Positions 1-14,678 are shown, numbered from the stretch's first letter. The stretch: DNA of 64,000 nucleotides from Capsulimonadaceae bacterium (GCA_965215505.1 OZ244065.1:2304001-2368000); one strand, 5' to 3'. Numbers and translations are program-made. The notes: generated by a model not told the origin, from the sequence alone.

Positions 1-680
1 TGGGGGGCATCGGCGATTCGGTCGCCATCACCTCCCCCCCCGCCGGCTCCTACCTCGTCACCGGGGCTTGGGACGACAGCGGCATCGCCTGCTATACCCT
101 GAGCGGGAAATGCCTGTGGCAGTACCCCGAGAAGTCACTCACGCGCCCCCGGCTGACCAACCGGCTGTTCACCGCCCAGCTTTCCGGCGACGGCCGGTAC
201 GTCCTGGGGCTGTCCTACGGCAACGTCCGCGAGAGCGACCCGACCCTGTACCTGTGGCGTAGCGACGGCGGCGGCACCCCGCAGTGGAAGACGGAACTGG
301 GCGACGACGCCTTCTACCCTACTGCCCAGATCACCCCGCAGGGCGGGTATGTGGCCGTCTCCTACCTGCATCAGATCGTGCGGGGGGACCGGAGCCTGTC
401 CGAACACCAGATCCGCCTGCTGAACCACGACGGCAGCACGCGCTGGCAGGGCGGCGGCCTGCTCTTCTCCCCCACCCTCATCGCGCTGGCCCCCGACGGC
501 GGCAGCGTCCTCGTCTCCGACGGCCAGCGCACTCTGTACGCCCTGGGCGGCAAGGACGGCCGCATTTTAGGAAGCTACCCGCAGCCCGGCCTGATCCGCC
601 AGACGGCGCTCTCGGCGGACGGCCGCGTTCTGCTGGTCTACACGGGCGACGGGACCTTAAGTTTGTGGCGGGTCGGGTGA
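1..680 (+). CDS. Partial (5'-truncated) beta-propeller (WD40/PQQ-like) repeat protein
   Basis: Frame open from the window edge to TGA at 680; repeated blade motifs (AQITPQGGYVAV, ALAPDGGSVLV, ALSADGRVLLV, GTLSLW). Confidence 0.7.
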   Translation, partial: GGIGDSVAITSPPAGSYLVTGAWDDSGIACYTLSGKCLWQYPEKSLTRPRLTNRLFTAQLSGDGRYVLGLSYGNVRESDPTLYLWRSDGGGTPQWKTELGDDAFYPTAQITPQGGYVAVSYLHQIVRGDRSLSEHQIRLLNHDGSTRWQGGGLLFSPTLIALAPDGGSVLVSDGQRTLYALGGKDGRILGSYPQPGLIRQTALSADGRVLLVYTGDGTLSLWRVG

Positions 681-693
681 GTCGGCGGCAGAC

Positions 694-733
694 AAAAAGG
701 AGGGCGGGGGAACCCCGCCCTCCTGCCGGTTTT
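694..733. terminator. Intrinsic terminator between convergent genes
   Basis: Hairpin AGGAGGGCGGGG-gaa-CCCCGCCCTCCT with flanking A-run and T-run. Confidence 0.75.
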
Positions 734-754
734 CCTCACATGTCCCCGGCGTCC

Positions 755-1528
755 CTACACCAGCACCGCCTCCGCCATGCTCGCCAGATGCTCGGCTTCG
801 CCCGCCATGCCGCCGATGTTGAGCTTGATGTCGGCCCGGTTCTCGATCTTCTCGACTTTGCCGTCCTTGATCCAGATCACGCGGTCGGACACGTCCACCA
901 TCTTGTAGTCGTGCGTGGCCGTGATGATCGTCACGCCCTGCTCCTTGTTGAGCCGGCGCAGCAGGGCGATGATCTCCTCGCCCGTCTTCGAGTCCAGGTT
1001 GCCCGTCGGCTCATCGGCAAGGATGATGCTGGGGTTATTCGCCAGCGACCGGGCGATGGCGACGCGCTGCTGCTGGCCGCCCGAGAGTTGCGAGGGCTTG
1101 TGGTGGTAGCGGTGGCCGAGGCCGACGATGTCCAGAAGCTCCATGCCCCGCGCGATGCCGTCGTCGGTGGGCTGGCCGGCGAAGATGGTCGGCAGGGTGA
1201 CATTTTCCAACGCAGTCATGACCGTAATCAGATTAAACGTCTGGAAGATGTACCCGATGGTGTGGCAGCGCAGGTAGGCGAGCTCCCCGGCGTCGAGCTG
1301 CGCCATGTCCACGTCGTTGATGAACACGCTGCCGCTGTCCGGCTTGTCCAGGCCGCCGATGGCGTTAAACAGGGTAGACTTGCCCGACCCGGACGGCCCC
1401 ATGATGGAGATGTACTCGCCGCGCCGGATGTCCACGTTGACTCCGTCGAGCGCGCGCAGCTTCTCTTCGCCGAGGGTAAAGACTTTGACCACGTCCTTGG
1501 TGCGGACGATGTATTCCGTTGCTGACAC
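755..1528 (-). CDS. ABC transporter ATP-binding protein, LolD/MacB family
   Basis: Walker A GPSGSGKS, signature LSGGQQQR, Walker [13 protein letters not shown]-loop ATHD. Confidence 0.95.
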
Positions 1529-1549
1529 TGATGATTTCTCCCGGTAGAA

Positions 1550-2179
1550 TTAGACTTCGGTGCGGAGGGCGGCGGCGGGCGGCATCTGGGCGGCGCGCTG
1601 GGCGGGCAGGAGGGCGGCGATAAGCGTTAGCAGCCCGCCGATGACGACGCAGCCCAGCAGCGTCCCGAAGATGACGCCGGCCGTCAGGTGCGTGACGCCG
1701 GGGTCCCAGCCGAGCGATGCCCAGCGGACCAGGAAGATGCCCAGGAAGCCCAGTATCCAGCCGGCGAACGAGGCCACGAAGCCCATGAAGATGGCTTCGA
1801 TGAGGAACAGGCGCACGATCAACGAGTTCAAAGCCCCCAGGCACTTCATCGTCCCGATCTCGCGGAACCGCTCCGAGACCGACATCAGCATCGAGTTCGT
1901 GATGCCGACCGTGCAGACCAGCAGGGCCATGATGACCAGCCAGACCTGCCGGTTAAAGGCCGCCGAGTTGTGGGACTCCAGCAGCGCGGTCACGCCGGAG
2001 AAGCACAGGAAGGCGATGCCGAGAAAGATGCCCGCGCCCGTGATCATGGACCGCCAGAAACGAATCTTAAGTGAGTTCATGGCGATCTGGATCGCCTTGC
2101 TCCACGGCAGGTTGATCTGCGTCTTAATGCCGCCGTCGCCTCTTGGTTTGCGGCCGTTGCCGCTGATCGCTACGGACAT
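1550..2179 (-). CDS. Small FtsX-like ABC permease lacking a large periplasmic domain
   Basis: ITNSMLMSVSERFREIGTMKCLGA and C-terminal LPAQRAAQMPPAAALR motifs; four hydrophobic segments. Confidence 0.9.
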   Translation of the reverse strand: MSVAISGNGRKPRGDGGIKTQINLPWSKAIQIAMNSLKIRFWRSMITGAGIFLGIAFLCFSGVTALLESHNSAAFNRQVWLVIMALLVCTVGITNSMLMSVSERFREIGTMKCLGALNSLIVRLFLIEAIFMGFVASFAGWILGFLGIFLVRWASLGWDPGVTHLTAGVIFGTLLGCVVIGGLLTLIAALLPAQRAAQMPPAAALRTEV

Positions 2180-2642
2180 TGGCTGTCCCCTTTCCTTTAT
2201 TCGTCCCAGTGGGCTTTGTCCCCGCTGGCTGAAGCCCGATCAACCCGCGCTGGGCGAACATCCGCATGGCCGTGATGACGCCCACCTCGCCCTGGCGGCG
2301 GTTCATCTTGTAGGTATCGCAGGCGTACCGGATGAGCTGGTCTACGCTGTGCTGCCCGTCGCAGCGCGCCCAGAGCTGGGCGTTGATCTCGTCCAGCTCA
2401 ATGGTGCGGGTCGCCGTGACGCGGAAGATGCGGGTCAGGATTCTGCCCACCCGGTCATCCCGGCGCGGGACGGTCAGCTTCGCGCCCGGCGTCTCGTCCT
2501 CGGCCGCCCTCATCTCCCAGACGATTTCGCGGCTGCGAACCGGCTTCAGCCCCAGCATCTCGCCGCGCGGCAGGCCCGCGCTCTCGCGCGCCAGGAACGG
2601 GATGGACTGACGCAGTGTGTTCAGCAGGCCTAACTGTGGCAC
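2124..2642 (-). CDS. PqqD family / RiPP-recognition-element-like protein (start uncertain: GTG 2642 or ATG 2558)
   Basis: IELDEINAQLWARCDGQHSVDQLI...FAQRGLI matches the PqqD winged-helix pattern (LN/D...IW...DG...V..I...L...GL). Confidence 0.75.
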   Translation of the reverse strand: MPQLGLLNTLRQSIPFLARESAGLPRGEMLGLKPVRSREIVWEMRAAEDETPGAKLTVPRRDDRVGRILTRIFRVTATRTIELDEINAQLWARCDGQHSVDQLIRYACDTYKMNRRQGEVGVITAMRMFAQRGLIGLQPAGTKPTGTNKGKGTANVRSDQRQRPQTKRRRRH

Positions 2643-3634
2643 AGGGTACGCTCGACGATCTCGTCCACGACCTGCGGCTGCGGGCGGCGACTGAAGGACT
2701 GCACTAGGTGGACCTTGTTGCTCTCCGGACACTCCCAGATGCGCGCTTCAAAGTGGGTGGCGGGCATCTGGAGCCGGGTGATCTGCGGCACGGCATGGGA
2801 CATCCAGTAGGACAGACCCAGACGCCGCCCGGTCAGGGCCAGCGCGGGGTGGCCTTGGGCGGTCGCCTCGCGGGCCTCATACTTCAACTGCCCCTCTAAC
2901 GCCTGGTTCTTCTGCCGGAACCACTGATCTAAATACGCGCCCCGAAGCTGGACGTTTGCGACGCCCCACTGCTCCACGGAGAGTGAGTCCATGGAGCTGC
3001 CGCGCACGAACGGGAGCTGCACATAGATGTTCATGAGCTGCGGCTTGGTCTTGAGGGCGTAGTCGCTCGGCACCTGCGTGTGCAGGTCGTACAAAGACCA
3101 GACGTGCCAGTCAGTGTCCTCGGAGTGGCATTCCAAGGTCTGGAGGGCGTCGGCGGCTAGGGCGCCGAAGTCGTCCCGCGCGCCGCCGACGACCTGGGCG
3201 ATGACGACGCGCATGCACTCGGAGCAGTGCCAGATGCGCCCGATCGCCTTCCGGTCGGCCTTCCAGGTGAACGACCTCTGGCCGGTCCGCTCCGGGTGGC
3301 GCGCGTCCCGGACGGCTTTGGTCTGCGTCACGGTGGCGATCTTCTGCCGCTTCGCGCTCTTTTCGATGGAGGCGAGGTAGAGGGTGAGCCGCTTTTCCAG
3401 GTCGGCGTCCGTCACCTTGCCCTTGACCGGAATCCAGCGGACGTCCACGCCCAGGACGCCATGCGCCTGGAACTCGCTGTTGTCCAGGCGCAGGCTGCCG
3501 GCCTTGGCATCGCCGCCATAGGAAACCAGGTTCCAGGCGGGCGGGGCCAGCATGGTCAGCCCCTGCCAGCCCATCGTCTTCCAGCCCTTACGGGCGGGCG
3601 GGCGGCTTACTTCTTGTCTCACAAGTGTTGTCAC
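2630..3634 (-). CDS. Hypothetical protein (334 aa), possibly with two internally similar halves
   Basis: Fits operon order and codon usage; GRIWHCSECMRV and ARIWECPESNKV resemble each other. Confidence 0.7.
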   Translation of the reverse strand: MTTLVRQEVSRPPARKGWKTMGWQGLTMLAPPAWNLVSYGGDAKAGSLRLDNSEFQAHGVLGVDVRWIPVKGKVTDADLEKRLTLYLASIEKSAKRQKIATVTQTKAVRDARHPERTGQRSFTWKADRKAIGRIWHCSECMRVVIAQVVGGARDDFGALAADALQTLECHSEDTDWHVWSLYDLHTQVPSDYALKTKPQLMNIYVQLPFVRGSSMDSLSVEQWGVANVQLRGAYLDQWFRQKNQALEGQLKYEAREATAQGHPALALTGRRLGLSYWMSHAVPQITRLQMPATHFEARIWECPESNKVHLVQSFSRRPQPQVVDEIVERTLCHS

Positions 3635-3650
3635 GTTTTGATATACGACC

Positions 3651-5726
3651 CTAGAAGGGCAGGAAGTTCACGGTCTTCTGAATCAGGGCCAGGGCGATGG
3701 CGGACATGCCGATCAGGCCCGTGCCGCAGGCGAAGCCGGCCAGCAGGACCGGCGTGTAGAGCTGCCAGCGCTCCAGGCCGAACCGTTTGGCGAAGTAGTA
3801 GCGGCCCAAAAGCGCGCCGATGAATGTCGGGATCGTGTTGTGCGGGATGTTGCCGATGCCGCCGATGAAGCCGTAGAAGAACAGCAAGGGCCACTTGAAC
3901 AGCAAGGTCGCCCCGTACATCCCCCCCGCGACTAATGCGCCGATGCCGATGACCGGCCCCTTGATGGCGTGCAGCGCCCACGAGGCCCCGTTGCCGGAGT
4001 TGATCTGGGTCCAGATGGACAGGTTGATGACCGAGAGCGGCCAGAACTTCTGGGCGTAGGGGAACTGCGCCGAGGGGATGTCGTTCGTGTGCCACAGGAA
4101 GCCCCAGTAGACGAAGCTCGTGATGAGAATCAAGGGCAGCATCGTGAGTTCCAGCCAGAAGATGCTGGTGAACTTGGTCCCCGTCAGCTCGATCTCGCGG
4201 AATTTCTGCGCCTGCCCGCCGTAGTCGTTGAGCGGCAGCGGCGCGAACCAGATGTCCGGCTTGGTGTAGCCGCTCCTCAAAACCACCGCCTGGTTCAAGA
4301 ACGGGAACGTGACGCCCTGGCCGGTCAGCCCGATCAGGCGGGCGGAGACGTAGGAGTTCAGCGGGGTCCAAACCAGGCCGTAAAAGATGACGATGGCGAT
4401 GGGGAAGGCCGGGACGAGTTGGTGGTTCAGGAGGACATACCCGCAGGTCGCCGCGAACCACGCCCCCACGGCGGCCCACCAGGGGAAGTCGCCGCGCCCC
4501 TGCGGCACTTTCCCCAGGCTCCCGCGCTGGGCGGACCGCTCGGTCCCGCGCGACTTGAGGACCGTGAGCAGGACGGCGAGCAGGCCGAGGGCGGCGATGG
4601 TGAGCTGGGTCCCGATGCTGAACGACATCCAGAAGTCGAAGTCAATGGAGGCCTTTGTCTGGATCGTCGGCGAGCCGGGGACCCAGTGCGGGAAGATGCT
4701 ATTTTGGCCGTTGACCAGGTGCGCCTGTCCGAGATGGTACATGATCGGGTTGGCGACGATCTGGGTGGCGATGGAGGAGATGAAGCTGCCCAGTACGATG
4801 GAGTAGGGCAGGATGAACCCGAACATGACCAGGCCCAGGTCGGGGTTGTAGCCGGTCAGGGCCGTCGGCAGGATGCGCTCGGTGTTTGGCGTCAGGTCCA
4901 TGAACGGGATCGGCAGGATGGTGACGGGCTTGCCCAGGGCGACGCCGGTGAAGATCGGGATCGCGAGGTAGAAGAAGCCGAAGATCAGGCCGACGATGGT
5001 GCCGGTGGAGAAGACCTGCCAGCGCCACGAGTCCTCCTTGGTGGAGGCCTCGGCCAGCGCGGTCGCGCCCGAGGCGGCGATGGAGGCGAACGGGAAGGGC
5101 AGCCGCTCCACGTCCGACGTGATCCGGAACAGCATGTAGCCCAGGCCCATCCACTTCATCCGGTCGAAGACCTGGCCGAACAGGATGATGGCAATGGGGA
5201 AGAGCCAGGCGGTGTCCCACAGGCTGCGGTGCGCGTAGGCCGGCGAGCCGGGCTGCGGACCGATCCAGGCAGGCAGCAGGTGGACGACGCCCACCATGGC
5301 GGGCGACTGCATGATGTACTGGGTCGCGATGAGCGCGCCGAACGGCCCGCCGGAGATGCCCGGCAGCCCGCCGAAGCCGGACCCGGCCAGAGCGCCGGCC
5401 ATGTAGAACAGGCAGTAGATCTCCTGTCGCTTGAGCGGAAGGAACGAGCGCCGGGCGATCTCGGAGAACAGGACGATCGTCACCCACTGGGCGGCCGCGC
5501 CCAGCCCCTGCCCGGCGACCAGGCCGAGGTAGATCGAGCCGGGGAGCATGATGAGGCAGACGAAGAGCATGCCCACCACGACCTTGCCGGTGAAGCCGTT
5601 CTCGAACTGTATCTGTTGGCCGCCCTCGTCGTTAGCCGTGTCTTCGGACCGCTCGCGCGCCGATTCGATGTCGTCCGGGGGCGCGGCACCGCGCCCGCGC
5701 TTCGTTTTTTGTTCCAGTGATGCCAC
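3651..5726 (-). CDS. OPT/YSL-superfamily-like multi-pass peptide transporter (691 aa)
   Basis: Many TM segments; FTGKVVVG...IYLGL and ERLPFP motifs typical of the OPT family; AAGGAGA RBS 9 nt before GTG. Confidence 0.75.
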   Translation of the reverse strand: MASLEQKTKRGRGAAPPDDIESARERSEDTANDEGGQQIQFENGFTGKVVVGMLFVCLIMLPGSIYLGLVAGQGLGAAAQWVTIVLFSEIARRSFLPLKRQEIYCLFYMAGALAGSGFGGLPGISGGPFGALIATQYIMQSPAMVGVVHLLPAWIGPQPGSPAYAHRSLWDTAWLFPIAIILFGQVFDRMKWMGLGYMLFRITSDVERLPFPFASIAASGATALAEASTKEDSWRWQVFSTGTIVGLIFGFFYLAIPIFTGVALGKPVTILPIPFMDLTPNTERILPTALTGYNPDLGLVMFGFILPYSIVLGSFISSIATQIVANPIMYHLGQAHLVNGQNSIFPHWVPGSPTIQTKASIDFDFWMSFSIGTQLTIAALGLLAVLLTVLKSRGTERSAQRGSLGKVPQGRGDFPWWAAVGAWFAATCGYVLLNHQLVPAFPIAIVIFYGLVWTPLNSYVSARLIGLTGQGVTFPFLNQAVVLRSGYTKPDIWFAPLPLNDYGGQAQKFREIELTGTKFTSIFWLELTMLPLILITSFVYWGFLWHTNDIPSAQFPYAQKFWPLSVINLSIWTQINSGNGASWALHAIKGPVIGIGALVAGGMYGATLLFKWPLLFFYGFIGGIGNIPHNTIPTFIGALLGRYYFAKRFGLERWQLYTPVLLAGFACGTGLIGMSAIALALIQKTVNFLPF

Positions 5727-5774
5727 GGGGGCATGTCTCCTTGTCGAAGCCTCGTCGAAACAGGGCGGGAAAAA

Positions 5775-5800
5775 GGGGCGAACACGAGGTTCGCCCCTAC
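5775..5800 (-). repeat. REP-like element (GTAG + hairpin)
   Basis: Minus strand reads GTAGGGGCGAACCTCGTGTTCGCCCC. Confidence 0.7.
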
Positions 5801-5810
5801 GGGGCAGGCG

Positions 5811-8800
5811 TTACAGGGCGGGCGCGACCGCCGCCGTCTCGCCCGCAGCGACCGGGATGGGGGCCGTGCCGACGCCCTCGCCGATCTCCAGGTAGCGTTC
5901 GCGTTGGTCCGCCGTCAGGGTGCGCCAGATGAGGAACTGCTTGCGGACGACGTTCAGGAAGCGGCGGTTGACGCGCTTCCAGTTGGACACGTCGCCCGAA
6001 ACGCGCGTCAGGGTCAGGTGGACGGCGTAGACGTCTTCCAAGTCCGTCGGGGCGGTGTCGAGCGAGATGGTCTGGGACACGCCCAGGTCGAACGGCGCGA
6101 GCCAGATGCGGCCGGTCAGCCGGTAGCCCGTGCCGCCCTCCATCATCTCGCGGCCCGTGCGGATGTCCTGGGTCAAGAAGTCGCCCACGGACTGTTCCTC
6201 GTAAGCCCGGAACCACTCGGCCAGGAACTGGTTGATGCCGGGGGCCTGCGCGCCCGCCACGGCGAAGGGCAGGGAGAGCTTCCAGACGTCGCCGTCCGGC
6301 TCGGGCACTTTCCACGTCCGGTCCACGGCGGGCGTCGCCACCTCGGACGCCTTGCGGGCGGGGAAGATGGTGGACAATAAGACGACCGCGACGACCAGGC
6401 CGATGGCGAGTTCGGCGGACGTGGACGAGAAGTTCAGGTACAGGCCGGGCAGGATATGGAAGACGGAGATCGCCTTGGCCAAGCCCTGGCCGATCAGGTA
6501 GCCCGACACGGCCCCGATGATGCCATAGACCAAAGCCTCGGCGATGAACAGCATGGCGATGTTGGACGGCGACAATCCAATGGAGGAGAAGATCGCGATC
6601 TCCTTGACCCGCTCGAAGACCGACCCGAGCATCGTGTTCAGGACGATCAGGGCGGCGATCAGGATGGGGATGATGATGTTGATCAACCCCTGCGACGAGG
6701 TCGCCCCGATGGCCGAGAAGCGGTGGTTGTCGGTCGAGTCGATGACGGTCCCGTTGGCCTGCTTTTTGAAGCCGCCCGCATACAGGTTCAGGTCCAGGCG
6801 CGGCATCAGGTCTTGCAGCTCGGTGTAGACGGTCGGCCCGGACCCCATGTTGATTCCGACCGATTCGAGGCTGCCGCCGAGGTTGATCAGGGTCGTGTAC
6901 GGCACATACAGGACGGCGTCCGGGTCCAAGTGCAGATATTCCTGGAAGCCCTGGGAGGCCGCCGACTGCGAGGACGACGAGGACGAAGAGCTGCTCTGGC
7001 TCTGCTGGGCCTGGTAGTCCACGGGCGTCAGGGTTTCGTTGTCCAGGTCCTTGATGGCCTTGAACTTGTCCGGGTCCATGATGCCGATGACGAGGTACGG
7101 CACGCCGCTGAAGTTGACCGTCACCCGGCCCACGTCACTCGGGGCGATCTGGAGGCTGGCCGCGACCGCCTTGGGGACGACGGCGGCGTAGGTGTCGGTG
7201 GCATTGAACCAGCGGCCCTCTGGCCTGCCGTCCGGCCCGGTCATCAGGGCTTTGTCCATGCCCGTGACCTGCGCCTCCTGCGGCGTGAAGCCGGTGACGC
7301 CTTTGACGTCGGTGCCGAGGTGCGCGCGGGTCAGGTGCAGGAAGGTGGTCTGGCCGGGCGTCGTGCCGTAGAACCAGGCGCGCGGGGCGACCGGGTAGCG
7401 GCTGCCGTACTCGTCGTTGAGCAGCCGGTAGGCCGTGAAGTCCAGGGTGTCCCAGGTCGGCAGCCGGAGCAGCAGGCCCTTGTAGGCGGCGACGCCCGGC
7501 GCGGACACGTCGTTGTAGCGGATGGTGTTGACGATCGACGTGAACGACAGTACGGTGAAGGTCAGCAGCACGAGTGTCAGGCAGGTCAGCAGCGTCCGTT
7601 CTTTGCGCCGGCGCATGTTGGAGATGCCCAGGGCGAAGGCGGCGAAGGCGATGGAGGCCTTGCCCACGTCGGCCTTGTGGACGCCGGACACGGACTTGTT
7701 GAACTGCTTGAGCTGTTCTTCGAACTTGCCCCACACCAGCAGTGAGACGATGACGGACAGGGCCAGCATGACGAACGCGATCAGGATGATCAGCGGGTTG
7801 ACCGAGCCGATGGCAAAGGCCGGATGGATCTGCGAGAAGACGATGAAGACAGCCAAAAAGATGCCGAAGGCCGCCCCGAGCTGCCGCTTCAGGTCGGAGA
7901 AGCCGAAAAGCAGCCGCTCCAGGAAGTAGGCGAAGGGGATCAAGAGGAACAGGTAGAAGATGACCCCCTGGACCACGTCGTTCGCCGTCTGCTGCACCTG
8001 CGGGTAGACGCGGGCCTCGTTCGCCCAGGCCTGACGGCTGTAGGCGTCGAACAGCTCGTAATCTTTCTTCTGGTAGGCCTCCAACGCCTGCTGAATCTCG
8101 CCCGCCGCCTGGTCGTGCAGGAACGTCACGGGGTTGGTCTTGTCGCCGAGTTGGACGATGCGGAACCGGGCCAGATTCTTGATTCGGAAGTCGTCCAGGC
8201 TCCACATGTCCTTGGCGACGCGAAGGGAGGTGTTGTTGATCGCGCCGTAGCGGACGATGTCGTCCGGGTTGTTCGGGTCGGGCGGCTTGTTGTAGTTCGC
8301 CAGCCGGGCGGAGGGTACGCCGACGGCGTAGCCGATGCCGGTGGGGTGGTCGGGCGTGGAGTTGATGAGCAGGAACCGGATGGCCGGGCCGTCGCCCGCG
8401 ATGACCTTGAGCCGCGTCGTGGTGTCCGGAGGCGAGAACAGCGTCAGCAGGCCCTGGCCGCGCTGGATGCCGTACTGGCGCGGCTCGCTGTCCGAAGCGC
8501 CGTCGAAGACGCTGATGTCGTTGACGCGCTTCAGGGCACCCTGGTTGACCAGCTCGTAGATGGTGGTGGCGACGCACGGGAAGACGATGACCTGGGTCTG
8601 TTTGAAGTCGCTGGTCAGGTCGAACTCGATGGGGTAGTTGGCCGCGCCGTTGACCCCACGGTCCGGCGCGTAGTCCACGTCCCCCCGGTTGCCCAGGCTG
8701 TCGTCGGCCGGGTGCAGCCGGAAGGCGTCCAGGTGCATCTTCCCGTCCGGCGCGAACCGAAGCCCGCCGCCGTTGGAGATGACCAGGGGCATGCCAACGA

Positions 8801-10637
8801 AGTCGAAGGCCGCCGTGCCGGGGGCGGTCGCCTGAATCAAGTTGGTGCGGACGCCGGTCGAACTCGTCCACTGGCAGCCGACCACGGCCAGAGTGTCCGT
8901 GATGGGCTTGTCGGGGACGAAGTTGGTCTTGGGGTCGAACAGCAGGACGCGGCCATGCAGGCGGCTGTAGCCGAGCCTCAGCCCTTGCCGGGTCCAGGCG
9001 GGCCAGGTGGGGACGGGCATCAGCGAGGCGGCGCTGTCGGGCGTGATGGCGTTCGGGTCGTTGGTGTCGTTGAGGACGTGCCAGTATTCGCAGGCGAGGG
9101 TCTTGGTCTGGGTGGCGAGGTTGACGACGTTGACCGTGGGCAGGGTGTCTGCGGGGGTGTCCACCTTCTGCCGGGCGTCGTCTGTGGTGGCGAAGGTGAT
9201 GCCCTTGCCGCCCGCCATCGTCGCCGTCTCGGCGTCAAAGTCGAAAAAGCCGGGGAGGTAGTTGCGCCAGCCCTTGCCGTTCGCGCCGTTGACGCCGTCG
9301 GCGAAGGCGACGGCGGGGTCGAACCCCAACACCTGCCCGGCCTTCTCGGCGTTCTCGCGCATCGTCCGCCCGATGTCCGAGAAGTCGCTCTGGATGTCCT
9401 CGCGGTAGTCGTAGAAGTAGCCCTTGTAGAAGACGCCCACGCTGCCCGTCTGCGAGGACAGGTCCAGGCCGGAGAACAGCAGGAGGTCGGTCCGGTCAGG
9501 CAGGCCGGCGTGGAAAACGCCGTGCTTCACCGTGTCGAGCGTGGAGACGGGCCGCCAGTCGTCCAGGTGCTTGTCTACGAAGGTCCGCGCCCCCTGGATG
9601 CCCAGAAAGTGTGCGCCGCTGGCGACGAACTGGACTGTCCGCTTGGGTGGGTGCGCTTTGAAGGCGCGCGCCAGTTCCAGCATGGCCGCGATGCCATCCG
9701 CCGCGTCCGCACCGGGTGCCTGGGTCGGGACGATGGACATGGAATCGAAATACGACTCGATGACGATGTTCTGGCCGGCCAGCGGCCCCGTTCCGGGGAT
9801 GGTGCCGACGATGTTGGCGGCGTCGCGGGTCTGCCAAGGGTTGTCGCAGGTGAGGTGGACCGCAAAGCCCGGCGTCGTCAGGGCCGCGGACTGGAGCAGG
9901 GCGGCGTCGCCGCGCGTGATCCAAAACCGGGGCATGTTGATAGGCAGGCGCAGGAACTTCAGCTCGCCCTCGCCGCGCTGGATCTGGTCCGGCTCGACGA
10001 AGATGATGGCCTTCGCGCCCAGCCGGGCGGCGTTCTGCCAGTCCACGCCGCAGTTGAAGTCCAGCAGGACGATACTGCCCTCGACGGGCTTGCCCCGGAA
10101 GGCGCGCAGGTCGCCCCGCCCGGCGTAGATCAGGGGGCCGTCAATGCCCGAGGCCGGCAGCGTGGAGGTGCGGACGAGGTTCGGCCAGAGCGGCTGCAAG
10201 GCCAGCGGCCGGGCCAGGCCCGCGCCCTGCACGGACGCGCCGTTGTCGGCGGGGACGGTGACGGGGAAGGTCTCCTCGTGGACGTTCGCCGCGCCGAGTA
10301 TCTGCTTCATCTGGGCCAGCACATAGGCACGCGCCTGGTCGCCGCCCGGCGACCCGGCCATGCGGGAGTGGGCGATGACGGGTGCCCCGGCGGGCTGGTT
10401 GGGGACGGAGTAGTGGATGCCCGACAGGTCGGCGATGGTTCTGGACAATCGGGCGGGGCTGACGCCCCCGGCCAGGGCGACGTAGTTCCTGGCCGCCTCG
10501 GGGTCTACTTTAATCTTGGGCTGGTCGGCGCGCGCCCCGGTCAAACACGGCATCAGGGCCAGGGCCATGAGCAGGCACCGGCAGAAGAAGAAGCAGGAAC
10601 GGGAACGCGCGCCGGGAGCGCGCTGGAAATCCTTCAT
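5811..10637 (-). CDS. Giant membrane protein: signal peptide + PA/M28-peptidase-like ectodomain fused to FtsX/MacB-type permease (~1608 aa)
   Basis: PA domain GPLIYAGRG...GAKAIIF; M28-like NIVGTIPG...IVIESYFDS...PGAD...MLELAR; FtsX motif LNTMLGSVFERVKEIAIFSSIGL and FPARKAS; ATG 10637 chosen from RBS and promoter position. Confidence 0.85.
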   Translation of the reverse strand: MKDFQRAPGARSRSCFFFCRCLLMALALMPCLTGARADQPKIKVDPEAARNYVALAGGVSPARLSRTIADLSGIHYSVPNQPAGAPVIAHSRMAGSPGGDQARAYVLAQMKQILGAANVHEETFPVTVPADNGASVQGAGLARPLALQPLWPNLVRTSTLPASGIDGPLIYAGRGDLRAFRGKPVEGSIVLLDFNCGVDWQNAARLGAKAIIFVEPDQIQRGEGELKFLRLPINMPRFWITRGDAALLQSAALTTPGFAVHLTCDNPWQTRDAANIVGTIPGTGPLAGQNIVIESYFDSMSIVPTQAPGADAADGIAAMLELARAFKAHPPKRTVQFVASGAHFLGIQGARTFVDKHLDDWRPVSTLDTVKHGVFHAGLPDRTDLLLFSGLDLSSQTGSVGVFYKGYFYDYREDIQSDFSDIGRTMRENAEKAGQVLGFDPAVAFADGVNGANGKGWRNYLPGFFDFDAETATMAGGKGITFATTDDARQKVDTPADTLPTVNVVNLATQTKTLACEYWHVLNDTNDPNAITPDSAASLMPVPTWPAWTRQGLRLGYSRLHGRVLLFDPKTNFVPDKPITDTLAVVGCQWTSSTGVRTNLIQATAPGTAAFDFVGMPLVISNGGGLRFAPDGKMHLDAFRLHPADDSLGNRGDVDYAPDRGVNGAANYPIEFDLTSDFKQTQVIVFPCVATTIYELVNQGALKRVNDISVFDGASDSEPRQYGIQRGQGLLTLFSPPDTTTRLKVIAGDGPAIRFLLINSTPDHPTGIGYAVGVPSARLANYNKPPDPNNPDDIVRYGAINNTSLRVAKDMWSLDDFRIKNLARFRIVQLGDKTNPVTFLHDQAAGEIQQALEAYQKKDYELFDAYSRQAWANEARVYPQVQQTANDVVQGVIFYLFLLIPFAYFLERLLFGFSDLKRQLGAAFGIFLAVFIVFSQIHPAFAIGSVNPLIILIAFVMLALSVIVSLLVWGKFEEQLKQFNKSVSGVHKADVGKASIAFAAFALGISNMRRRKERTLLTCLTLVLLTFTVLSFTSIVNTIRYNDVSAPGVAAYKGLLLRLPTWDTLDFTAYRLLNDEYGSRYPVAPRAWFYGTTPGQTTFLHLTRAHLGTDVKGVTGFTPQEAQVTGMDKALMTGPDGRPEGRWFNATDTYAAVVPKAVAASLQIAPSDVGRVTVNFSGVPYLVIGIMDPDKFKAIKDLDNETLTPVDYQAQQSQSSSSSSSSSQSAASQGFQEYLHLDPDAVLYVPYTTLINLGGSLESVGINMGSGPTVYTELQDLMPRLDLNLYAGGFKKQANGTVIDSTDNHRFSAIGATSSQGLINIIIPILIAALIVLNTMLGSVFERVKEIAIFSSIGLSPSNIAMLFIAEALVYGIIGAVSGYLIGQGLAKAISVFHILPGLYLNFSSTSAELAIGLVVAVVLLSTIFPARKASEVATPAVDRTWKVPEPDGDVWKLSLPFAVAGAQAPGINQFLAEWFRAYEEQSVGDFLTQDIRTGREMMEGGTGYRLTGRIWLAPFDLGVSQTISLDTAPTDLEDVYAVHLTLTRVSGDVSNWKRVNRRFLNVVRKQFLIWRTLTADQRERYLEIGEGVGTAPIPVAAGETAAVAPAL

Positions 10638-10738
10638 TGGCGGGTCTATCCTTGGTGGGCGGCCCGGCGCAGCACCGTCGGGCGCGCGGGCCGCTAAGGT
10701 CAAGCGGACGTTAAGAGGGCCAAATCGCAAGCACATTC

Positions 10739-10767
10739 ATAATATCACAAACCCACAAAAAAGGCAA
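10739..10767 (-). promoter_or_regulatory. Sigma70-type promoter for the 755-10637 operon
   Basis: TTGCCT-N17-TATTAT with extended -10 TG on the minus strand. Confidence 0.65.
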
Positions 10768-10850
10768 TAGGCCAAAACGCGGGGAAGCGGCAGCCCTCCG
10801 GCCACACAACAAAGCGCCCCGCCGGCGCTTGCGCCGGGGTGGGTGCTTTG

Positions 10851-10859
10851 TGCTATACT
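10851..10859 (+). promoter_or_regulatory. Extended -10 promoter of gmk, probably leaderless
   Basis: TGcTATACT, 6 nt upstream of GTG 10866; no SD. Confidence 0.6.
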
Positions 10860-10865
10860 CTCTCC

Positions 10866-11501
10866 GTGACTACCTCTACAAAACCCGGTGACACCGGCCT
10901 GCTCGTCGTCGTCTCCGGCCCGTCCGCCGTCGGCAAGGATACCGTCCTGGATGCCCTGCTCTCCCGCGCCGACCTGCCGCGCCCCGTCCAGAAGTGCGTT
11001 ACCACCACGACCCGCGCGCCGCGCCCGAAGGACGGCGGGCGGGGGATGGAGGAGGACGGCGTGGACTACCACTTCGTCAGCCCCGCCCGCTTCAACGAGA
11101 TGGTGGCCCACGACGAGCTGCTGGAATACGCCGAGTACGCGGACAACTACTACGGGACGCCGCGCGCCTGGGTGTCCGAGCGGCGTCGGCTCGGGATCGA
11201 CGTCATCCTCAAGATCGAGGTCCAGGGCGGCCTGATCGTCCAGGAGAAGGCCCCCGACGCCGTGCTGGTCTTCTTGCAGCCTCCGTCGCTGGAGGAGCTG
11301 GAGCGCCGCCTGCGCCACCGCCGGACGGACAGCGAGGACCAGATCGCCAAGCGGCTGCTGCACGCCCGCAAGGAGATGGCCCAGCGCCCCCACTACGACT
11401 ACGCCGTGACCAACGACAGCGTGGAAGACGCCGTGGACGCCATCCGGGCCGTCCTGCGCGCGGAACACTGCCGCATTCATAACGGGGCCGCCGATGTCTG
11501 A
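10866..11501 (+). CDS. gmk: Guanylate kinase
   Basis: SGPSAVGKDT, TTRAPR, GVDYHFVS, YYGTP motifs. Confidence 0.95.
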   Translation: MTTSTKPGDTGLLVVVSGPSAVGKDTVLDALLSRADLPRPVQKCVTTTTRAPRPKDGGRGMEEDGVDYHFVSPARFNEMVAHDELLEYAEYADNYYGTPRAWVSERRRLGIDVILKIEVQGGLIVQEKAPDAVLVFLQPPSLEELERRLRHRRTDSEDQIAKRLLHARKEMAQRPHYDYAVTNDSVEDAVDAIRAVLRAEHCRIHNGAADV

Positions 11502-12681
11502 GAACCCTAAGCGCGTCGTGTTAGGCGTATCCGCCTCCATCGCCGCCTACAAGGCCGCCGACCTTGCGAGCCGGCTGGTCAAGAGCGGCGTCGAGGTCTT
11601 CCCGGTGATGACGGCGGGGGCCGCGAACTTCGTCCAGCCCGCGACGTTCCGCGCCTTGACCCACCACCCCTGCCCCATTGACACGTTTGAAGAGCCGTTC
11701 CCCGGCGAGATCGCCCACATCTGGCTCGCGCGCAACTGCGACCTGTTCGTCATCGTGCCCGCCTCCATGAACGTCATCGCCCGGCTCGCCAACGGGCTGG
11801 CCGAGGACATGCTGACTGCCTCGGCGATGGCCTGCACCGCGCCCATCCTGCTCGCGCCGGGCATGAACACGGGCATGTGGAACAACCCGGCCACGCAGGC
11901 GAATTTGGCGAAGCTGCGCGACTACGGCTACTACTTCATCGAGCCGACGACCGGGCGGCTGGCCTGCCGGACGGAGGGCGTGGGCCGAATGGCCGACGTG
12001 GAAACGATCTTCAGCGCCATCCAGGAGATGCTGGCCCGTTCGGGATCGTGGGCGGGGCGGAACGTCCTGGTGACGGCGGGGCCGACGCGCGAGCCGCTGG
12101 ACCCGGTCCGCTTCCTGTCTAACCGGTCATCGGGCAAGATGGGCTACGCGCTGGCCGAAGCCGCCCGCGTGCGCGGGGCGAGCGTCACGCTGGTTTCCGG
12201 TCCGACGGCTTTGGCCGCGCCGGGGGGCGTGGAGTTCGTCCGCGTGGAGACGGCGGCGCAGATGCGGGACGCCGTGCTGCCGCGCGCCGCCGGGGCAGAC
12301 CTGATACTGGCCGCCGCCGCCGTCGCGGACCACCGGCCCGCCGAGTTCGCGGCGCAGAAGGTCAAAAAAGATGCCGGGGCCTATGCCCTGCCGCTGGCAT
12401 CGAACGACGACATCCTGGCCGCCCTGGGGCGCGCAAAGCGGGCAGGCCAGACATTGGTCGGGTTCGCGGCGGAAACCGAGAACCTCCTTGACAACGCGCG
12501 GGGCAAGCTGACGGCCAAGAACCTGGACTGGATCGTCGCTAACGACGTGACGGCGGAGGGGGCGGGCTTCGACGGGGACACGAACGTCGTCACCCTGCTC
12601 GGGCGCGGCGGGGGCGAGACTGCCCTGCCGCTGCTGACCAAGCGCGAGGTCGCCGAGCGGATACTGGACGCGGTGGGCTGA
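11494..12681 (+). CDS. coaBC: Bifunctional phosphopantothenoylcysteine decarboxylase / phosphopantothenate-cysteine ligase
   Basis: SIAAYKA, PGMNTGM, LAC..G.GRM, TAGPTREPLDPVRFLSNRSSGKMG, VGFAAET. Confidence 0.95.
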   Translation: MSENPKRVVLGVSASIAAYKAADLASRLVKSGVEVFPVMTAGAANFVQPATFRALTHHPCPIDTFEEPFPGEIAHIWLARNCDLFVIVPASMNVIARLANGLAEDMLTASAMACTAPILLAPGMNTGMWNNPATQANLAKLRDYGYYFIEPTTGRLACRTEGVGRMADVETIFSAIQEMLARSGSWAGRNVLVTAGPTREPLDPVRFLSNRSSGKMGYALAEAARVRGASVTLVSGPTALAAPGGVEFVRVETAAQMRDAVLPRAAGADLILAAAAVADHRPAEFAAQKVKKDAGAYALPLASNDDILAALGRAKRAGQTLVGFAAETENLLDNARGKLTAKNLDWIVANDVTAEGAGFDGDTNVVTLLGRGGGETALPLLTKREVAERILDAVG

Positions 12682-12695
12682 GGAGAAACAACAGC

Positions 12696-12731
12696 AAAAG
12701 AGGGCGGGGGCCATGCCCCCGCCTCTTTTTT
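12696..12731. terminator. Bidirectional intrinsic terminator
   Basis: AAAAGAGGGCGGGGGC-cat-GCCCCCGCCTCTTTTTT between convergent genes. Confidence 0.8.
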
Positions 12732-12738
12732 GGTTCTT

Positions 12739-13683
12739 TTATTGCACGGTGGGGGTGAGGGCGGCGGGCGGCGCGGAGGCGCGCTTCAGGGTCGAAGTGA
12801 CCTTCATGTCCATGTTCACCGGGGCGTTCGCGCCGGGCGGCGTCATGTTCATGGTGATGTTGGCGCGGCCGGTCTGCCCGATGATGGCCCCGGCGTCTAC
12901 GTCGAACCGCATCGTCCCGGTCCCCGTGACGTTCCCCTTCATCGGAGGGCCTGCGGGTGCCGCCCCCGCCGCAGTGGCGGAGGTGTCGAACGCGCCGCTG
13001 GTGGTCTGCTTGATGATCGCGACCGTCTTGCCGCCGGTCGTGTCCAGACTCAGCAGCGTGAAGCCGGCGGCGATGTTCGTCCCCATCATGCCCATGGCGA
13101 CGGCGCTCTTCCAGGTGTCCCCGGCCTTGACGGGACCGTCCGGGAACTGGCCCAGGCTGCCCATCGGGTTCATGTGGGTCATGTCCATGCCCGGCATCGG
13201 CCCCGCCGCACTCATGCCCTCGCTGGGCGTGAAGGACACCGTCTTGCCGGTCGGCAGGATCACCATCGTCCCGATCGTCTTCATCTGGGCCAGCTTCTCG
13301 GGCGGCGTGGGCATCGTCTGCCCGTTCATGCCCATCTGCATCGCGTCCAGCCCGACGTCAAGCGTCGCCGCGCCGTCCGAAGCCTGGACGGACTTGACCG
13401 TCTGGTGCATCAGCATCTGCATGTGGATGTGGAGCGGCATCCCCGCCCCGCCCTGCCCGGTCAGCAGGGTGCCGTCGGTGTCCGTGGTCAGCGAGTAATA
13501 CAGAGTCTGCCCCGGCGTGAACTTGAGCCGCAGCGGGACGGCCGAAGCCGCCGAAGGGGTGGCCGTGGGTGCCGCCGTCGGCACGGCGGGCGGCACGGGC
13601 GGGGCGGCCTGTGCGTGTGCGGCGAGCGGAGAGGCGGCAAGCATTAGAGCTGCCGCGAGTGAATAGCTGTTGTTCTTTGTCAT
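12739..13683 (-). CDS. Secreted hypothetical protein, Met-rich and beta-rich
   Basis: Signal peptide (AAALMLAASPLAAHA), LRLKFTPGQ, PVKAGDTW; ATG 13683 overlaps the upstream stop. Confidence 0.7.
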   Translation of the reverse strand: MTKNNSYSLAAALMLAASPLAAHAQAAPPVPPAVPTAAPTATPSAASAVPLRLKFTPGQTLYYSLTTDTDGTLLTGQGGAGMPLHIHMQMLMHQTVKSVQASDGAATLDVGLDAMQMGMNGQTMPTPPEKLAQMKTIGTMVILPTGKTVSFTPSEGMSAAGPMPGMDMTHMNPMGSLGQFPDGPVKAGDTWKSAVAMGMMGTNIAAGFTLLSLDTTGGKTVAIIKQTTSGAFDTSATAAGAAPAGPPMKGNVTGTGTMRFDVDAGAIIGQTGRANITMNMTPPGANAPVNMDMKVTSTLKRASAPPAALTPTVQ

Positions 13684-14678
13684 TGTTCTGGCTCCTGGTT
13701 TCCCTGAAAACGGAAATAGTTGTCGCCGATCTTGATCTCGTCCCCGAGGTTCAGGATGGCGCGCTGGACGCGCATCCCGTTGACATACACGCCGTTCGCG
13801 CTGCCGAGGTCCATCACCGTCCATTTCCCCTGGTCGTCGCGCTGGACGCGGGCGTGCTGGCGCGAGACGGTGTTTTCGGCCAGCACGATCTCGCTGTCGC
13901 CGTCGCGCCCGATGGTCAGGTCGCCCAGGGTCAGCGCGAACGTGCTGCCCGCCGCGATCCCCTGCAAGCCGACGAGGGAAGGCCCGCCGGGCGGCATCAG
14001 CTCCAGCCCGCGCGGGGCGCCTGTCGCCGCGACCGCAAGCCCCGCCTCTTCCGGGACCGGCTCCGGCGCGCGCCTGGTGGGCACATAGGCGGTGATCTTG
14101 TCCTGGTCCTCCGCTGCCTCCAGGGCGGCGGGTTCCGGGGCCTCGATGCCGAGCCGCCGGGCCACCAGCCGCAGCGGCTCGCCGCGCGTCTTGACGAGCT
14201 GGACGACGACCCATAGGACGCCCGCCGCAAGGGCCAGGCTGAACAGGCCGGTCACGAGCCGCCCCACCCCGCCCGCACGGTCCGGGGCGGGCGCGGGGGA
14301 CGGCGGGATGACGATCACGGCGGGAGCGGCGGGAGTCGCAACGGGGGCGGGGGCAACCGGCTGGAAGTCCGCCACGGCCAGCGTGATTGGGGCAGGGACG
14401 CCACCCGCCCCGACCGTGACGGCTCGGGCGGCAACCTGTCCGGTGTGGGCGTCCAGCACGAGCAGGCGGTCACCAGCCGTCAAAGTGGCGGCGATCTTGA
14501 TACTGGCTTTACCGGAAACGCCGATAGGAAGAGCCGTGACGGCCCCGGCCTTCGACTGTATCCAATACGAGTACGCCCCGCTGTCCGGCAGCGTCAAGGT
14601 CAGCGGCGGGGCGGCTATGGCGGACGGGGCCGACGCCAGCAGGCAGAAGGCGGAGAGGAGCGCGAAGAGTCTAGTCAT
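13680..14678 (-). CDS. Single-pass membrane protein with C-terminal FHA domain
   Basis: Signal peptide, TM helix, FHA motifs IGR...VSRQHA...DLGSANGVYVNG. Confidence 0.9.
   Translation of the reverse strand: MTRLFALLSAFCLLASAPSAIAAPPLTLTLPDSGAYSYWIQSKAGAVTALPIGVSGKASIKIAATLTAGDRLLVLDAHTGQVAARAVTVGAGGVPAPITLAVADFQPVAPAPVATPAAPAVIVIPPSPAPAPDRAGGVGRLVTGLFSLALAAGVLWVVVQLVKTRGEPLRLVARRLGIEAPEPAALEAAEDQDKITAYVPTRRAPEPVPEEAGLAVAATGAPRGLELMPPGGPSLVGLQGIAAGSTFALTLGDLTIGRDGDSEIVLAENTVSRQHARVQRDDQGKWTVMDLGSANGVYVNGMRVQRAILNLGDEIKIGDNYFRFQGNQEPEQ

Follow-up and report, generated by a model that had tools for sequence, protein, structure and literature searches.

What kind of machine is built by six adjoining genes that bring together an ATP-binding cassette (ABC) ATPase, two FtsX-type permeases, one of them a giant, a polytopic membrane protein of 691 residues and two cytoplasmic proteins? 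The question is raised by a locus in the genome of a Capsulimonadaceae bacterium (GCA_965215505.1), a single contig of 6.18 Mb whose nearest public relatives are labelled Capsulimonadaceae and Armatimonadota. The window analysed here is the whole 64,000-nucleotide stretch OZ244065.1:2304001-2368000, and the six genes lie near its start. A sequence-only reading had described them as one operon, a candidate for an undescribed peptide-handling system. The analyses presented below indicate that the six genes are a real operon, and that they encode the central part of a multi-subunit machine of the cell envelope, present in most Armatimonadota and in some Planctomycetota and Verrucomicrobiota. Its role is most likely the uptake of glycan- or peptide-derived nutrients, and neither the export of antibiotics nor the maturation of ribosomally synthesized and post-translationally modified peptides (RiPPs).

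Recurrence of the six genes

Evidence that the six genes belong together comes from their order in other genomes. Among 65 loci gathered with the 691-residue protein, many of the others being short contigs, 23 show the same six-gene order, and 16 loci of Fimbriimonadaceae and Chthonomonas type carry the 691-residue gene without the other five inside the flanks. A second set, collected via the giant gene, comprises 20 loci from different Armatimonadota families: the six-gene order is present in 10 (families f8, f13, f15, f19, f22, f25, f26 and f27), the giant and 691-residue genes only in 4, variants in 2 and the giant gene alone in 4, so that the giant and 691-residue genes are adjacent in 16 of the 20. 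In one variant (L084, G129:C2:60500-80400) the order is PqqD, FtsX, ATPase, giant, 691-residue gene, ATPase; in the other (L085/L055, G107:C30) it is DUF6785, giant, 691-residue gene, FtsX, ATPase, with a weak PqqD-like open reading frame (ORF) and a second ATPase gene in addition. The variant cluster of family f18 is without the gene for the 334-residue cytoplasmic protein and has two ATPase genes and a longer FtsX partner (ORF of 339-495 residues), the N-terminal 200 residues of which showed no similarity to the PqqD-like or 334-residue profiles in single-sequence hhalign runs (L055).

The same picture emerges at the level of whole genomes, when each component is searched in one even set of 151 Armatimonadota genomes. 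The C-terminal half of the giant, the 691-residue protein and the membrane protein family DUF6785 (PF20581), which is encoded outside the window, are each found in 127 genomes, the PqqD-like profile in 126 and the 334-residue profile in 123. The canonical OPT model PF03169, used as a control, finds matches in only 19 (11 over the cut-off); a single one is strong, and several weak ones fall on homologues of the 691-residue protein or of DUF6785. The giant, the 691-residue protein and DUF6785 have identical tallies per family and per genus and the same 20 negatives among those listed (of 24). Four giant-positive genomes gave no match to the 334-residue profile, namely G143 and three from family f18, all the positive ones of that family, in which the variant cluster is found; the one genome without a PqqD match is G080, in which 23 of 134 first-look candidates were scored. 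With very few exceptions, a sampled genome yielded either the complete set, along with DUF6785/DUF6784, or none of it (127 positive, 24 negative). Some of the negatives are genomes rated 98-100% complete (G049, G044, G064, G077, G102, G125), and patchy presence within families matches across the components (f2 5/6, f7 2/7, f11 3/12, f19 2/3, f22 4/6).

The co-occurrence persists when the genes lie far apart, separated by hundreds of kilobases in G176, G168 and G114, and also in G075. The module of 334-residue, PqqD-like, FtsX and ATPase genes is intact in three of six split genomes (G176, G168, G055), and the 334-residue gene is solitary in the others (G083, G151, G130). Almost all positive genomes have one match each to the PqqD-like and 334-residue profiles, and the pair of giant and OPT-fold genes is present in two to three copies in G091, G128, G129 and G067. 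Outside the phylum, the profile of the 691-residue protein finds matches in 23 of 151 Planctomycetota genomes, and three metagenome-assembled genomes (MAGs), labelled Planctomycetaceae, Verrucomicrobiia and Tepidisphaeraceae, carry the giant and 691-residue genes, with FtsX and ATPase genes as well where the contig extends far enough, in loci L056 and L058. No 334-residue gene was seen in the Planctomycetota and Verrucomicrobiota variant clusters; a PqqD-like gene was not found there by tblastn, and one PqqD-like ORF was later found in each of two variant loci. Recurring order and phylum-wide co-occurrence rule out a chance juxtaposition of the six genes, and we are highly confident that a conserved multi-protein system exists. 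The sequence-only reading had staked itself on co-occurrence of these genes in other genomes, which both sets of loci and the 151-genome tallies bear out.

In one locus (L108, G036:C432:14500-26000) the giant and OPT-fold genes form a single open frame of 2538 residues without a stop (2372-9985, plus strand), which could be a natural fusion or an error of sequencing or assembly. An open frame of 2363 residues in G180 was also considered as a fusion; it consists of two frames split by one stop codon. Two observations concern single loci. In L038, from a MAG labelled Fimbriimonas, a solitary OPT-fold gene is followed by genes of PSCyt1/PSCyt2/PSD1 and DUF1501 proteins, with mutS before it (12055-16688, plus strand). 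A complete six-gene cluster in a MAG labelled Janthinobacterium lividum (L018, JBPBQB010000001.1) encodes an OPT-fold protein 82% identical to that of the window; as the remaining close relatives all bear an Armatimonadota label, a binning error seems likely here.

Within the window, the six co-oriented ORFs fill 755-10736 (Table 1), with gaps of 21, 16 and 84 nucleotides (nt) and two overlapping pairs. The candidate promoter is the sole sigma-70-like site on the minus strand within 400-11000 in a pattern scan and is placed in the 100-nt divergent spacer before a guanylate kinase gene; the terminator-like hairpin, the best in the scan, has a T run and lies 31 nt past the ATPase stop. Both signals are consensus matches only, promoter-like sites numbering 2 against 1.0 expected and terminator-like ones 14 against 5.7. 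The ORF map, the pattern scan and the recurring order agree with the single transcription unit, with one promoter, one terminator and short gaps or overlaps, that had been proposed earlier. Metatranscriptome contigs of relatives (~90% identity, ice metagenomes from one study) match portions of the genes for the ATPase, the OPT-fold protein and the giant, and in each of three runs a single contig bridges the junction of the 334-residue and OPT-fold genes (3416-3886); such contigs cannot prove a single transcript, DNA carry-over is possible, and stretches left uncovered carry no meaning.

The ATG at 10637 (residue 34), and not that at 10736, is the probable start of the giant gene, because most full-length homologues align from residue 34 or beyond, because AAGGA stands upstream, and because the ATG at 10736 would fall at or before the predicted transcript start. 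For the PqqD-like gene, homologue alignment points to 2642 as the probable start, as the sequence-only reading had it. The start of the small FtsX gene is uncertain, its ORF overlapping the PqqD-like gene by 56 nt. Upstream, the genes of guanylate kinase and bifunctional CoaBC (10839-12681, plus strand, 8-nt mutual overlap) run divergently and therefore set the operon boundary where it had been drawn before. A minus-strand ORF at 10737-11540 (267 residues) was rejected as a seventh gene; it belongs to no family, is antisense to guanylate kinase and is a typical shadow frame of high-GC DNA.

Table 1. Features of the operon (positions in the window) and DUF6785+DUF6784 genes of the same genome (positions on contig C1)
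Feature	Position	Strand	Remarks
ABC ATPase	755..1528	-	257 aa, MacB/LolD type
Small FtsX-type permease	1550..2179	-	209 aa, four hydrophobic segments, without periplasmic domain
PqqD-like (RRE-type winged-helix) protein	2124..2642	-	172 aa; ORF open to 2732 (202 aa)
Cytoplasmic protein, predicted tandem PsbP/Mog1 fold	2630..3634	-	334 aa, no described family
Polytopic membrane protein with OPT/Yellow-Stripe fold (TM691)	3651..5726	-	691 aa; fold from predicted model
Giant FtsX-type permease	5811..10637	-	~1608 aa from likely start; ORF open to 10736 (1641 aa)
Conserved cytoplasmic C-terminal domain of giant	5814..6329	-	residues 1470-1641; no known family
FtsX C-terminal permease domain (TM2-4) of giant	6345..6674	-	residues 1355-1464; PF02687 E 1e-13, 51.8 bits (cut-off 25.5)
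MacB-like periplasmic core domain of giant	6993..7595	-	residues 1048-1248; PF12704 E 8.3e-7, 29.9 bits (cut-off 27)
Three extra hydrophobic segments of giant	7734..7985	-	residues ~918-1001; link ectodomain to FtsX module
M28-like half-domain of giant, without catalytic residues	9534..9815	-	residues 308-401; PF04389 E 4e-11
Protease-associated (PA) domain of giant	9900..10139	-	residues 200-279; PF02225 E 0.0013, 19.2 bits (cut-off 23.9)
Sigma-70-like promoter candidate	10739..10767	-	TTGCCT-17-TATTAT, 9/12, TG before -10
Intrinsic-terminator-like hairpin	698..724	-	12-bp stem (10 GC), 3-nt loop, then TTTTTGTCTG
DUF6785+DUF6784 genes, contig C1	105454-107526, 821139-823214, 912173-914308, 1372084-1374075, 2182519-2184537		
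DUF6785+DUF6784 genes, contig C1, continued	3118150-3120261, 3262660-3264837, 3909342-3911453, 5900504-5902498, 6106186-6108189		

Composition of the machine

The giant runs from a signal or anchor segment through an ectodomain of ~850 residues and three extra transmembrane (TM) segments to the first FtsX segment (TM1), a MacB periplasmic core domain, TM2-4 and a cytoplasmic tail. Hydropathy places its hydrophobic segments at residues 48-66, 918-1001, 1051-1069 and 1342-1458 and the end of the ectodomain at ~915. The PA stretch aligns with the PA+M28 aminopeptidases YwaD (6hc6, E 3e-6) and 2ek8 (E 6.7e-6), the PF04389 match covers only profile positions 1-93 of 193, and a protein atlas search with residues 400-915 returned one uncharacterised cluster only. 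In an alignment of 29 homologues the block of extra segments is strongly conserved (F960, H971, P972, A973, F974 and F988 invariant), and the tail holds many invariant residues (D1483, P1490, G1518, P1548, D1550, G1552, R1578, G1581, W1586, R1598, W1604, R1605); no Pfam match to the tail was obtained, nor any PDB sequence relative below E 0.48.

The state of the M28-like domain bears directly on what the head of the giant may do. Family M28 has two His, two Asp and one Glu as zinc ligands, plus a catalytic Glu. In HMMER alignments the SYFDS of the giant falls on the first zinc-ligand His of YwaD, 2ek8 and the Aeromonas/Vibrio aminopeptidases, and its GAHFLG on the GAEELG of YwaD, which we take to hold the catalytic Glu and a zinc-ligand Glu. 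Among the 29 homologues, phylum-wide and beyond, none has His in the first column (0/29; Tyr, Phe or another residue in all 29) and none has Glu-Glu in the second (0/29), where His-Phe or a similar pair stands, with His at the first of the two positions in 26. To judge from these residues, the domain is a catalytically dead pseudo-peptidase. The M28-like/FtsX composition ascribed to this megaprotein on first reading thus stands in Pfam, together with PA and MacB domains, the PA match remaining below its cut-off, and the peptidase-like part turns out to lack the residues of a peptidase.

The 691-residue protein has no Pfam or NCBIfam match, PF03169 included, even at E 10, and only 2 of its 34 homologues match PF03169 (best 8.7e-8). 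Its AlphaFold2 model (pLDDT 79.7, pTM 0.79) is similar to barley Yellow Stripe 1 (YS1) with probability 1.00 (7wst_A, E 5.8e-9; 7wsr_A, E 9.7e-9; TM scores 0.60/0.67), and the next structural match follows only at E 0.08; the sequence identity to YS1 is ~13%, and a PDB sequence search with the family profile gave no match. The model assigns the protein to the OPT/Yellow-Stripe fold. Of the OPT transporter named by the sequence-only reading, the fold is therefore upheld by prediction and the family membership by sequence is not. The nearest protein atlas clusters carry the automatic name 'peptide transporter', with PF03169 on 15-33% of their members, and source annotations of homologues read "hypothetical protein", with one "peptide transporter". 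The family is small, with 1129 representatives at E<=0.001 and 461 at E<=1e-30 among 1.84 billion proteins.

The ATPase matches ABC_tran (E 4.7e-33) and has intact motifs (Walker A GPSGSGKST, signature LSGGQQQR, Walker B ILADEPT). Its best NCBIfam matches are LolD (TIGR02211, 231.4 bits, cut-off 307.75) and MacB (NF007826, 229.5 bits), with DarD at 220.5 bits and L_ocin_972_ABC at 187.7 bits, both under cut-off; the top models, LolD, MacB, DarD, YbbA, DevA and FtsE, lie at 199-231 bits, and none reaches its equivalog cut-off. By these scores the protein is an ATPase of MacB/LolD/FtsE type without assignment to a named orthologue, and its identity in syntenic loci is 71-98%. The small permease matches PF02687 at residues 81-201 (E 2.7e-16, 60.1 bits, cut-off 25.5), and its hydrophobic segments lie at residues ~49-67, 73-101, 120-151 and 173-191. 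Its first loop of only ~6-12 residues is nearly absent and therefore leaves no periplasmic domain; PF12704 was likewise not found in it by Pfam or hydropathy. The Pfam and NCBIfam searches agree with the earlier identification of both subunits. Against the LolCDE and FtsEX equivalog models (TIGR02212, TIGR00439, NF038346/7; cut-offs 225-362) the giant scores 21.5/21.2 bits and the small FtsX 42.4/30.5 bits, and Pfam and NCBIfam scans detect no MacA-type membrane-fusion adaptor among the six products. Elsewhere in the genome, a conventional set of MacA-type adaptor, MacB-type permease and ATPase lies at contig coordinates 292779-296524, and two further pairs of MacB-like permease and ATPase are encoded at 1.28 and 1.97 Mb.

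The PqqD-like protein scores 23.1-23.5 bits against PF05402 (cut-off 23.4), all 17 homologues match that model at E<=0.01 (best 3.8e-15), and the family profile matches solved structures of a lasso PqqD chaperone (9x90_B, E 2.1e-7), PqqD (3g2b, 6.3e-5) and TbiB1 (5v1u, 9.7e-5), in keeping with the PqqD/RiPP recognition element (RRE) domain read from the sequence earlier. The alignment shows a conserved N-terminal extension of ~70 residues and a basic C-terminal RRRH tail, and hydropathy finds no hydrophobic segment. A domain of this kind raises the alternative of a cassette for export of, and immunity to, a RiPP-type product or bacteriocin, in which the PqqD-like protein would read a leader and the ABC part export or resist the product. 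The resemblance of the ATPase to the exporter ATPases of darobactin and lactococcin 972, though below cut-off, would fit such a cassette. However, neither a RiPP maturase domain nor a conserved ORF of precursor size was found in the operon or in homologous loci, and the intergenic gaps of the operon measure only 16-84 nt, in line with the view taken before that this is no standard RiPP or pyrroloquinoline quinone (PQQ) cluster. The phylum-wide, essentially single-copy and ordered distribution is unlike that of patchy RiPP clusters, and in the variant clusters of Planctomycetota and Verrucomicrobiota no 334-residue gene was seen and tblastn found no PqqD-like gene, a point softened by the ORFs found later in two loci. 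We consider a RiPP cassette very improbable.

The 334-residue protein, about which the sequence-only reading had no specific statement, has no Pfam or NCBIfam family (24 homologues gave only scattered Pfam matches under cut-off), and a PDB sequence search with its family profile found no match. In its AlphaFold2 model (pLDDT 89.1, pTM 0.84), residues 15-170 superpose on CyanoP, the cyanobacterial PsbP (2xb3, Z 15.0, root-mean-square deviation 2.7 Å over 142), and residues 174-333 on Tsi3 (4luq_C, Z 10.5); Foldseek adds TplEi and PsbP at E 6e-5 to 1e-3. The protein is thus predicted to consist of two tandem PsbP/Mog1-fold domains. C137, C140, H170, C302, C332 and H333 are invariant or nearly so in the family alignment, which suggests a putative metal site. 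Complex prediction lends weak support to binding between the PqqD-like and 334-residue proteins, with a score of 0.50 (best control 0.02), a contact agreement between runs of at least 39% and a partner pLDDT of at least 63. Of 80 solved complexes, 58 attain the mark applied, as do 2 of 110 mismatched pairs; those attaining it at 0.60 or below include both mismatches but only 7 of the 80 complexes.

The DUF6785 family and the case for uptake

If the operon does not handle RiPPs, what would it move? The companions of the system in the genomes offer a lead. This genome encodes 10 DUF6785+DUF6784 proteins (~660-730 residues), none of them within the window. Many Armatimonadota genomes have at least 9 scored DUF6785 matches, in the five genomes where DUF6785 is present once the giant and the 691-residue gene are each present once too, and the Pfam model has no match in any of 14 control genomes. 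A DUF6785 gene adjoins the giant or 691-residue gene in L055/L085, L058, L109 and L057. Compared profile to profile in hhalign, the 691-residue family and DUF6785 align over 143 columns (probability 74.9%, E 2.6e-5) and have a D-x-ERL-x-FP motif in common; the signal appears only in that run, a single DUF6785 sequence showing no similarity to the OPT-fold profile, and the 691-residue protein matches neither PF20581 nor PF20580. The protein atlas places DUF6784/6785 clusters at 0.88-0.89 to the 691-residue protein. These comparisons suggest that the 691-residue protein is a distant paralogue of the DUF6785 proteins, the similarity being remote. A related-locus search with one DUF6785 protein matched only that protein itself.

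The neighbours of the DUF6785 genes point to sugars. In this genome, 5 of the 10 have co-oriented genes of glycan breakdown or sugar catabolism beside them: glycoside hydrolase family GH125; GH92 with a cupin/lyxose-isomerase-like gene and GH127; an FGGY kinase with an aldolase and a dehydrogenase; a BD-FAE esterase; and GH116, with GH35 in the vicinity. Downstream of a sixth comes a xylose-isomerase-like TIM-barrel gene. In G130, of a distant family, GH32, GH43 or GH2 is adjacent in 4 of 5 DUF6785 loci scanned, of 7 fetched. DUF6785+DUF6784 looks like an uncharacterised family of membrane transporters of glycan loci, and its link to the operon therefore points to the uptake of glycans or nutrients rather than to a dedicated peptide system. 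In one locus of G130 (L111, G130:C1:202000-215500), a DUF1559/N-terminal-methylation gene (pseudopilin-like, SBP_bac_10; 7647-8459, minus strand) lies directly upstream of DUF6785, and two GH32 genes follow; the DUF1559 gene may be another recurring partner in such loci.

The fold of the 691-residue protein leads to a different proposal, in which it would move a metallophore or an oligopeptide and the ABC part would expel the ligand or capture it in the periplasm, like PvdRT-OpmQ for pyoverdine. The sole structural relatives, YS1 with and without Fe(III)-phytosiderophore, agree with such a transporter of metal chelates or small peptides, as do the 'peptide transporter' names in the atlas and on one homologue, the membership of the PA and M28-like head in peptide-binding families, and M1 and M16 peptidase genes near two DUF6785 paralogues. 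Yet the operon has no gene for metallophore biosynthesis, a TonB-type receptor or a membrane-fusion protein, the residues for zinc-mediated binding of a peptide N-terminus are missing, and the DUF6785 neighbours are mostly glycoside hydrolases. On balance this proposal is improbable.

For nutrient uptake, one can picture a mechanotransducing type VII ABC system that is coupled to permeases of the OPT fold, with steps given here from the best to the least supported. A heterodimeric type VII permease carrying two copies of the ATPase would be formed by the giant and the small FtsX protein, a pairing that the sequence-only reading also proposed. The OPT-fold protein would be a physical partner of the giant, because the two genes are adjacent, occur in mostly equal copy numbers, have the same distribution and in one genome may be fused. 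ATP hydrolysis would shift the periplasmic core domain and thereby the pseudo-peptidase head, by mechanotransmission as in MacB, LolCDE and FtsEX, and the head would capture or release, rather than cleave, a nutrient-derived ligand; in the sequence-only reading, ectodomain and RRE would select a peptide. The OPT-fold permease, perhaps with DUF6785 paralogues, would offer the ligand a path over the cytoplasmic membrane, hence uptake. The pair of PsbP-like and PqqD-like proteins would dock on the complex from the cytoplasm, as an adaptor or to regulate it, and the ligand of the PqqD domain would be an extended stretch of some partner protein instead of a RiPP leader. Taken as a whole, we give this chain slightly less than an even chance of being right.

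Several points weigh against uptake by such a machine. The import direction of transport is one that we infer, and to our knowledge the described type VII ABC systems export, extract or signal rather than import. The YS1 match comes from a predicted model of a protein that the OPT Pfam model does not recognise. What ties the operon to DUF6785 is mainly the phyletic pattern, and both might simply mark lineages and have been lost along with a way of life; moreover, 4 of the 10 DUF6785 loci of this genome have no sugar neighbours among those scanned (isocitrate dehydrogenase/phosphoenolpyruvate carboxylase, DNA glycosylase-like, Lon/tetratricopeptide repeat, M1 peptidase), and the related genomes in the 151-genome tallies are not independent. 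The fused frame of L108 occurs in one MAG only, and in the other genome of its genus the two genes are unfused. Finally, the giant and 691-residue proteins keep 45-60% identity across families, and none of the five FtsX-domain genes of this genome reaches an FtsX or LolCE equivalog cut-off, findings that would also suit a housekeeping role in the envelope.

The operon would in that case be a lineage-specific stand-in for FtsEX, controlling wall hydrolases via its dead-enzyme domain, or for LolCDE, extracting lipoproteins; in either case the OPT-fold protein would serve as a structural partner or recycle wall peptides. Besides the two findings just named, phylum-wide conservation in 127 of 151 genomes, LolD as the best match of the ATPase, a putative heterodimeric FtsX pair resembling LolC/LolE and a pseudo-enzyme ectodomain reminiscent of EnvC speak for such a role. 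Nevertheless, the system was not found in 24 of the 151 genomes, some of them 98-100% complete, and is therefore dispensable for the cell plan of the phylum. Pairs of giant and OPT-fold genes multiplied two- to three-fold suit the diversification of substrates better than division, the system tracks a multi-copy family of glycan-utilisation loci, and M28 is an aminopeptidase fold, not that of a cell-wall hydrolase. We regard both the stand-in and the matching part for the OPT-fold protein as unlikely, if somewhat less so than the transport of metal chelates or peptides.

A bolder form of nutrient uptake would make the giant FtsX-ABC complex an ATP-driven hub for a whole family of OPT-fold permeases, comprising that of the operon and the one to more than ten DUF6785/DUF6784 paralogues within glycoside-hydrolase loci. 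Such a hub would define a hitherto unknown class of system for nutrient uptake. Its dead-peptidase receptor head would serve many substrate-specific modules resembling secondary transporters, by analogy with one TonB-ExbBD or energy-coupling factor (ECF) module, and the hub would be the main route of glycan import in Armatimonadota and in some Planctomycetota and Verrucomicrobiota. We count this scheme as a whole among the long shots. Were the link to DUF6785 functional, it would give a role to two Pfam DUFs and several orphan families, explain nutrient import in a poorly studied, mostly saccharolytic phylum, and bring a new working mode to the ABC superfamily and a non-RiPP job to the PqqD/RRE domain. 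Culturable relatives exist in Capsulimonas, Fimbriimonas and Chthonomonas.

Relation to known systems

Full-text searches of the literature, supplementary files aside, found no mention of DUF6785 or DUF6784, and titles and abstracts gave nothing relevant on the combination of FtsX, PqqD and M28 or on a conserved OPT/ABC cluster of Armatimonadetes. As far as these titles and abstracts go, the claim of the sequence-only reading that no characterised system has such a composition holds. The parts, on the other hand, all have relatives. Both halves of the 334-residue protein have the alpha-beta-alpha sandwich fold, in the predicted model, of PsbP/Mog1/DUF1795-type proteins (the Eag chaperone, DcrB, TplEi), but the protein has no sequence similarity to them, is cytoplasmic and carries a Cys/His set not described there, and the fold alone gives no function. 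The PqqD-like protein has the winged-helix PqqD domain of PqqD and TbiB1 by sequence profile, whereas it has no radical-SAM, cyclase, protease or precursor partner, bears the extra N-terminal 70 residues and the basic tail, and is encoded beside the PsbP-fold protein, which it is weakly predicted to bind.

The ectodomain of the giant recalls nicalin, nicastrin and the transferrin receptor, in which an extracytoplasmic PA and M28-like domain without zinc or catalytic residues is tethered to a membrane complex; nicalin is also a weak sequence match (6w6l_5, E 0.0012). Unlike the giant, these analogues are eukaryotic proteins with one membrane pass, and none is joined to an ABC permease. The 691-residue protein shares its predicted fold with OPT/Yellow-Stripe-like proteins (PF03169; YS1, 7wst, 7wsr), to which some homologues are weakly matched, and departs from them in its low identity to YS1 and in the D-x-ERL-x-FP signature common to DUF6785. 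We know of no OPT proteins that accompany a giant FtsX protein, as the 691-residue family always does. DUF6785/DUF6784 proteins are alike in size, polytopic, remotely similar by profile and identical in phyletic pattern; they differ in standing in 10 copies in glycan-utilisation loci here, while the 691-residue gene occurs mostly once per giant gene.

The closest relatives of the whole are the type VII ABC systems, MacB of MacAB-TolC, LolCDE and FtsEX. The operon has in common with them the FtsX four-helix domain, the MacB core domain between TM1 and TM2, a separate ATPase of LolD/MacB type, two different permeases as in LolC/LolE and, presumably, mechanotransmission. It differs in the ~850-residue head of PA and dead M28 domains, the three extra TM segments and the 170-residue cytoplasmic tail of the giant, in a partner FtsX without periplasmic domain, in having no membrane-fusion gene and in reaching no equivalog cut-off, as well as in having an OPT-fold protein as obligate partner and two accessory proteins in the cytoplasm. 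No described type VII ABC system is known to be coupled to an OPT-fold permease, to have a pseudo-peptidase built in as its head, or to work with PqqD-like and PsbP-fold partners in the cytoplasm. Among the systems of the type VII ABC superfamily, the operon stands for a new and unstudied architecture, in which OPT-fold proteins are coupled to the ABC part and which is widespread in one phylum.

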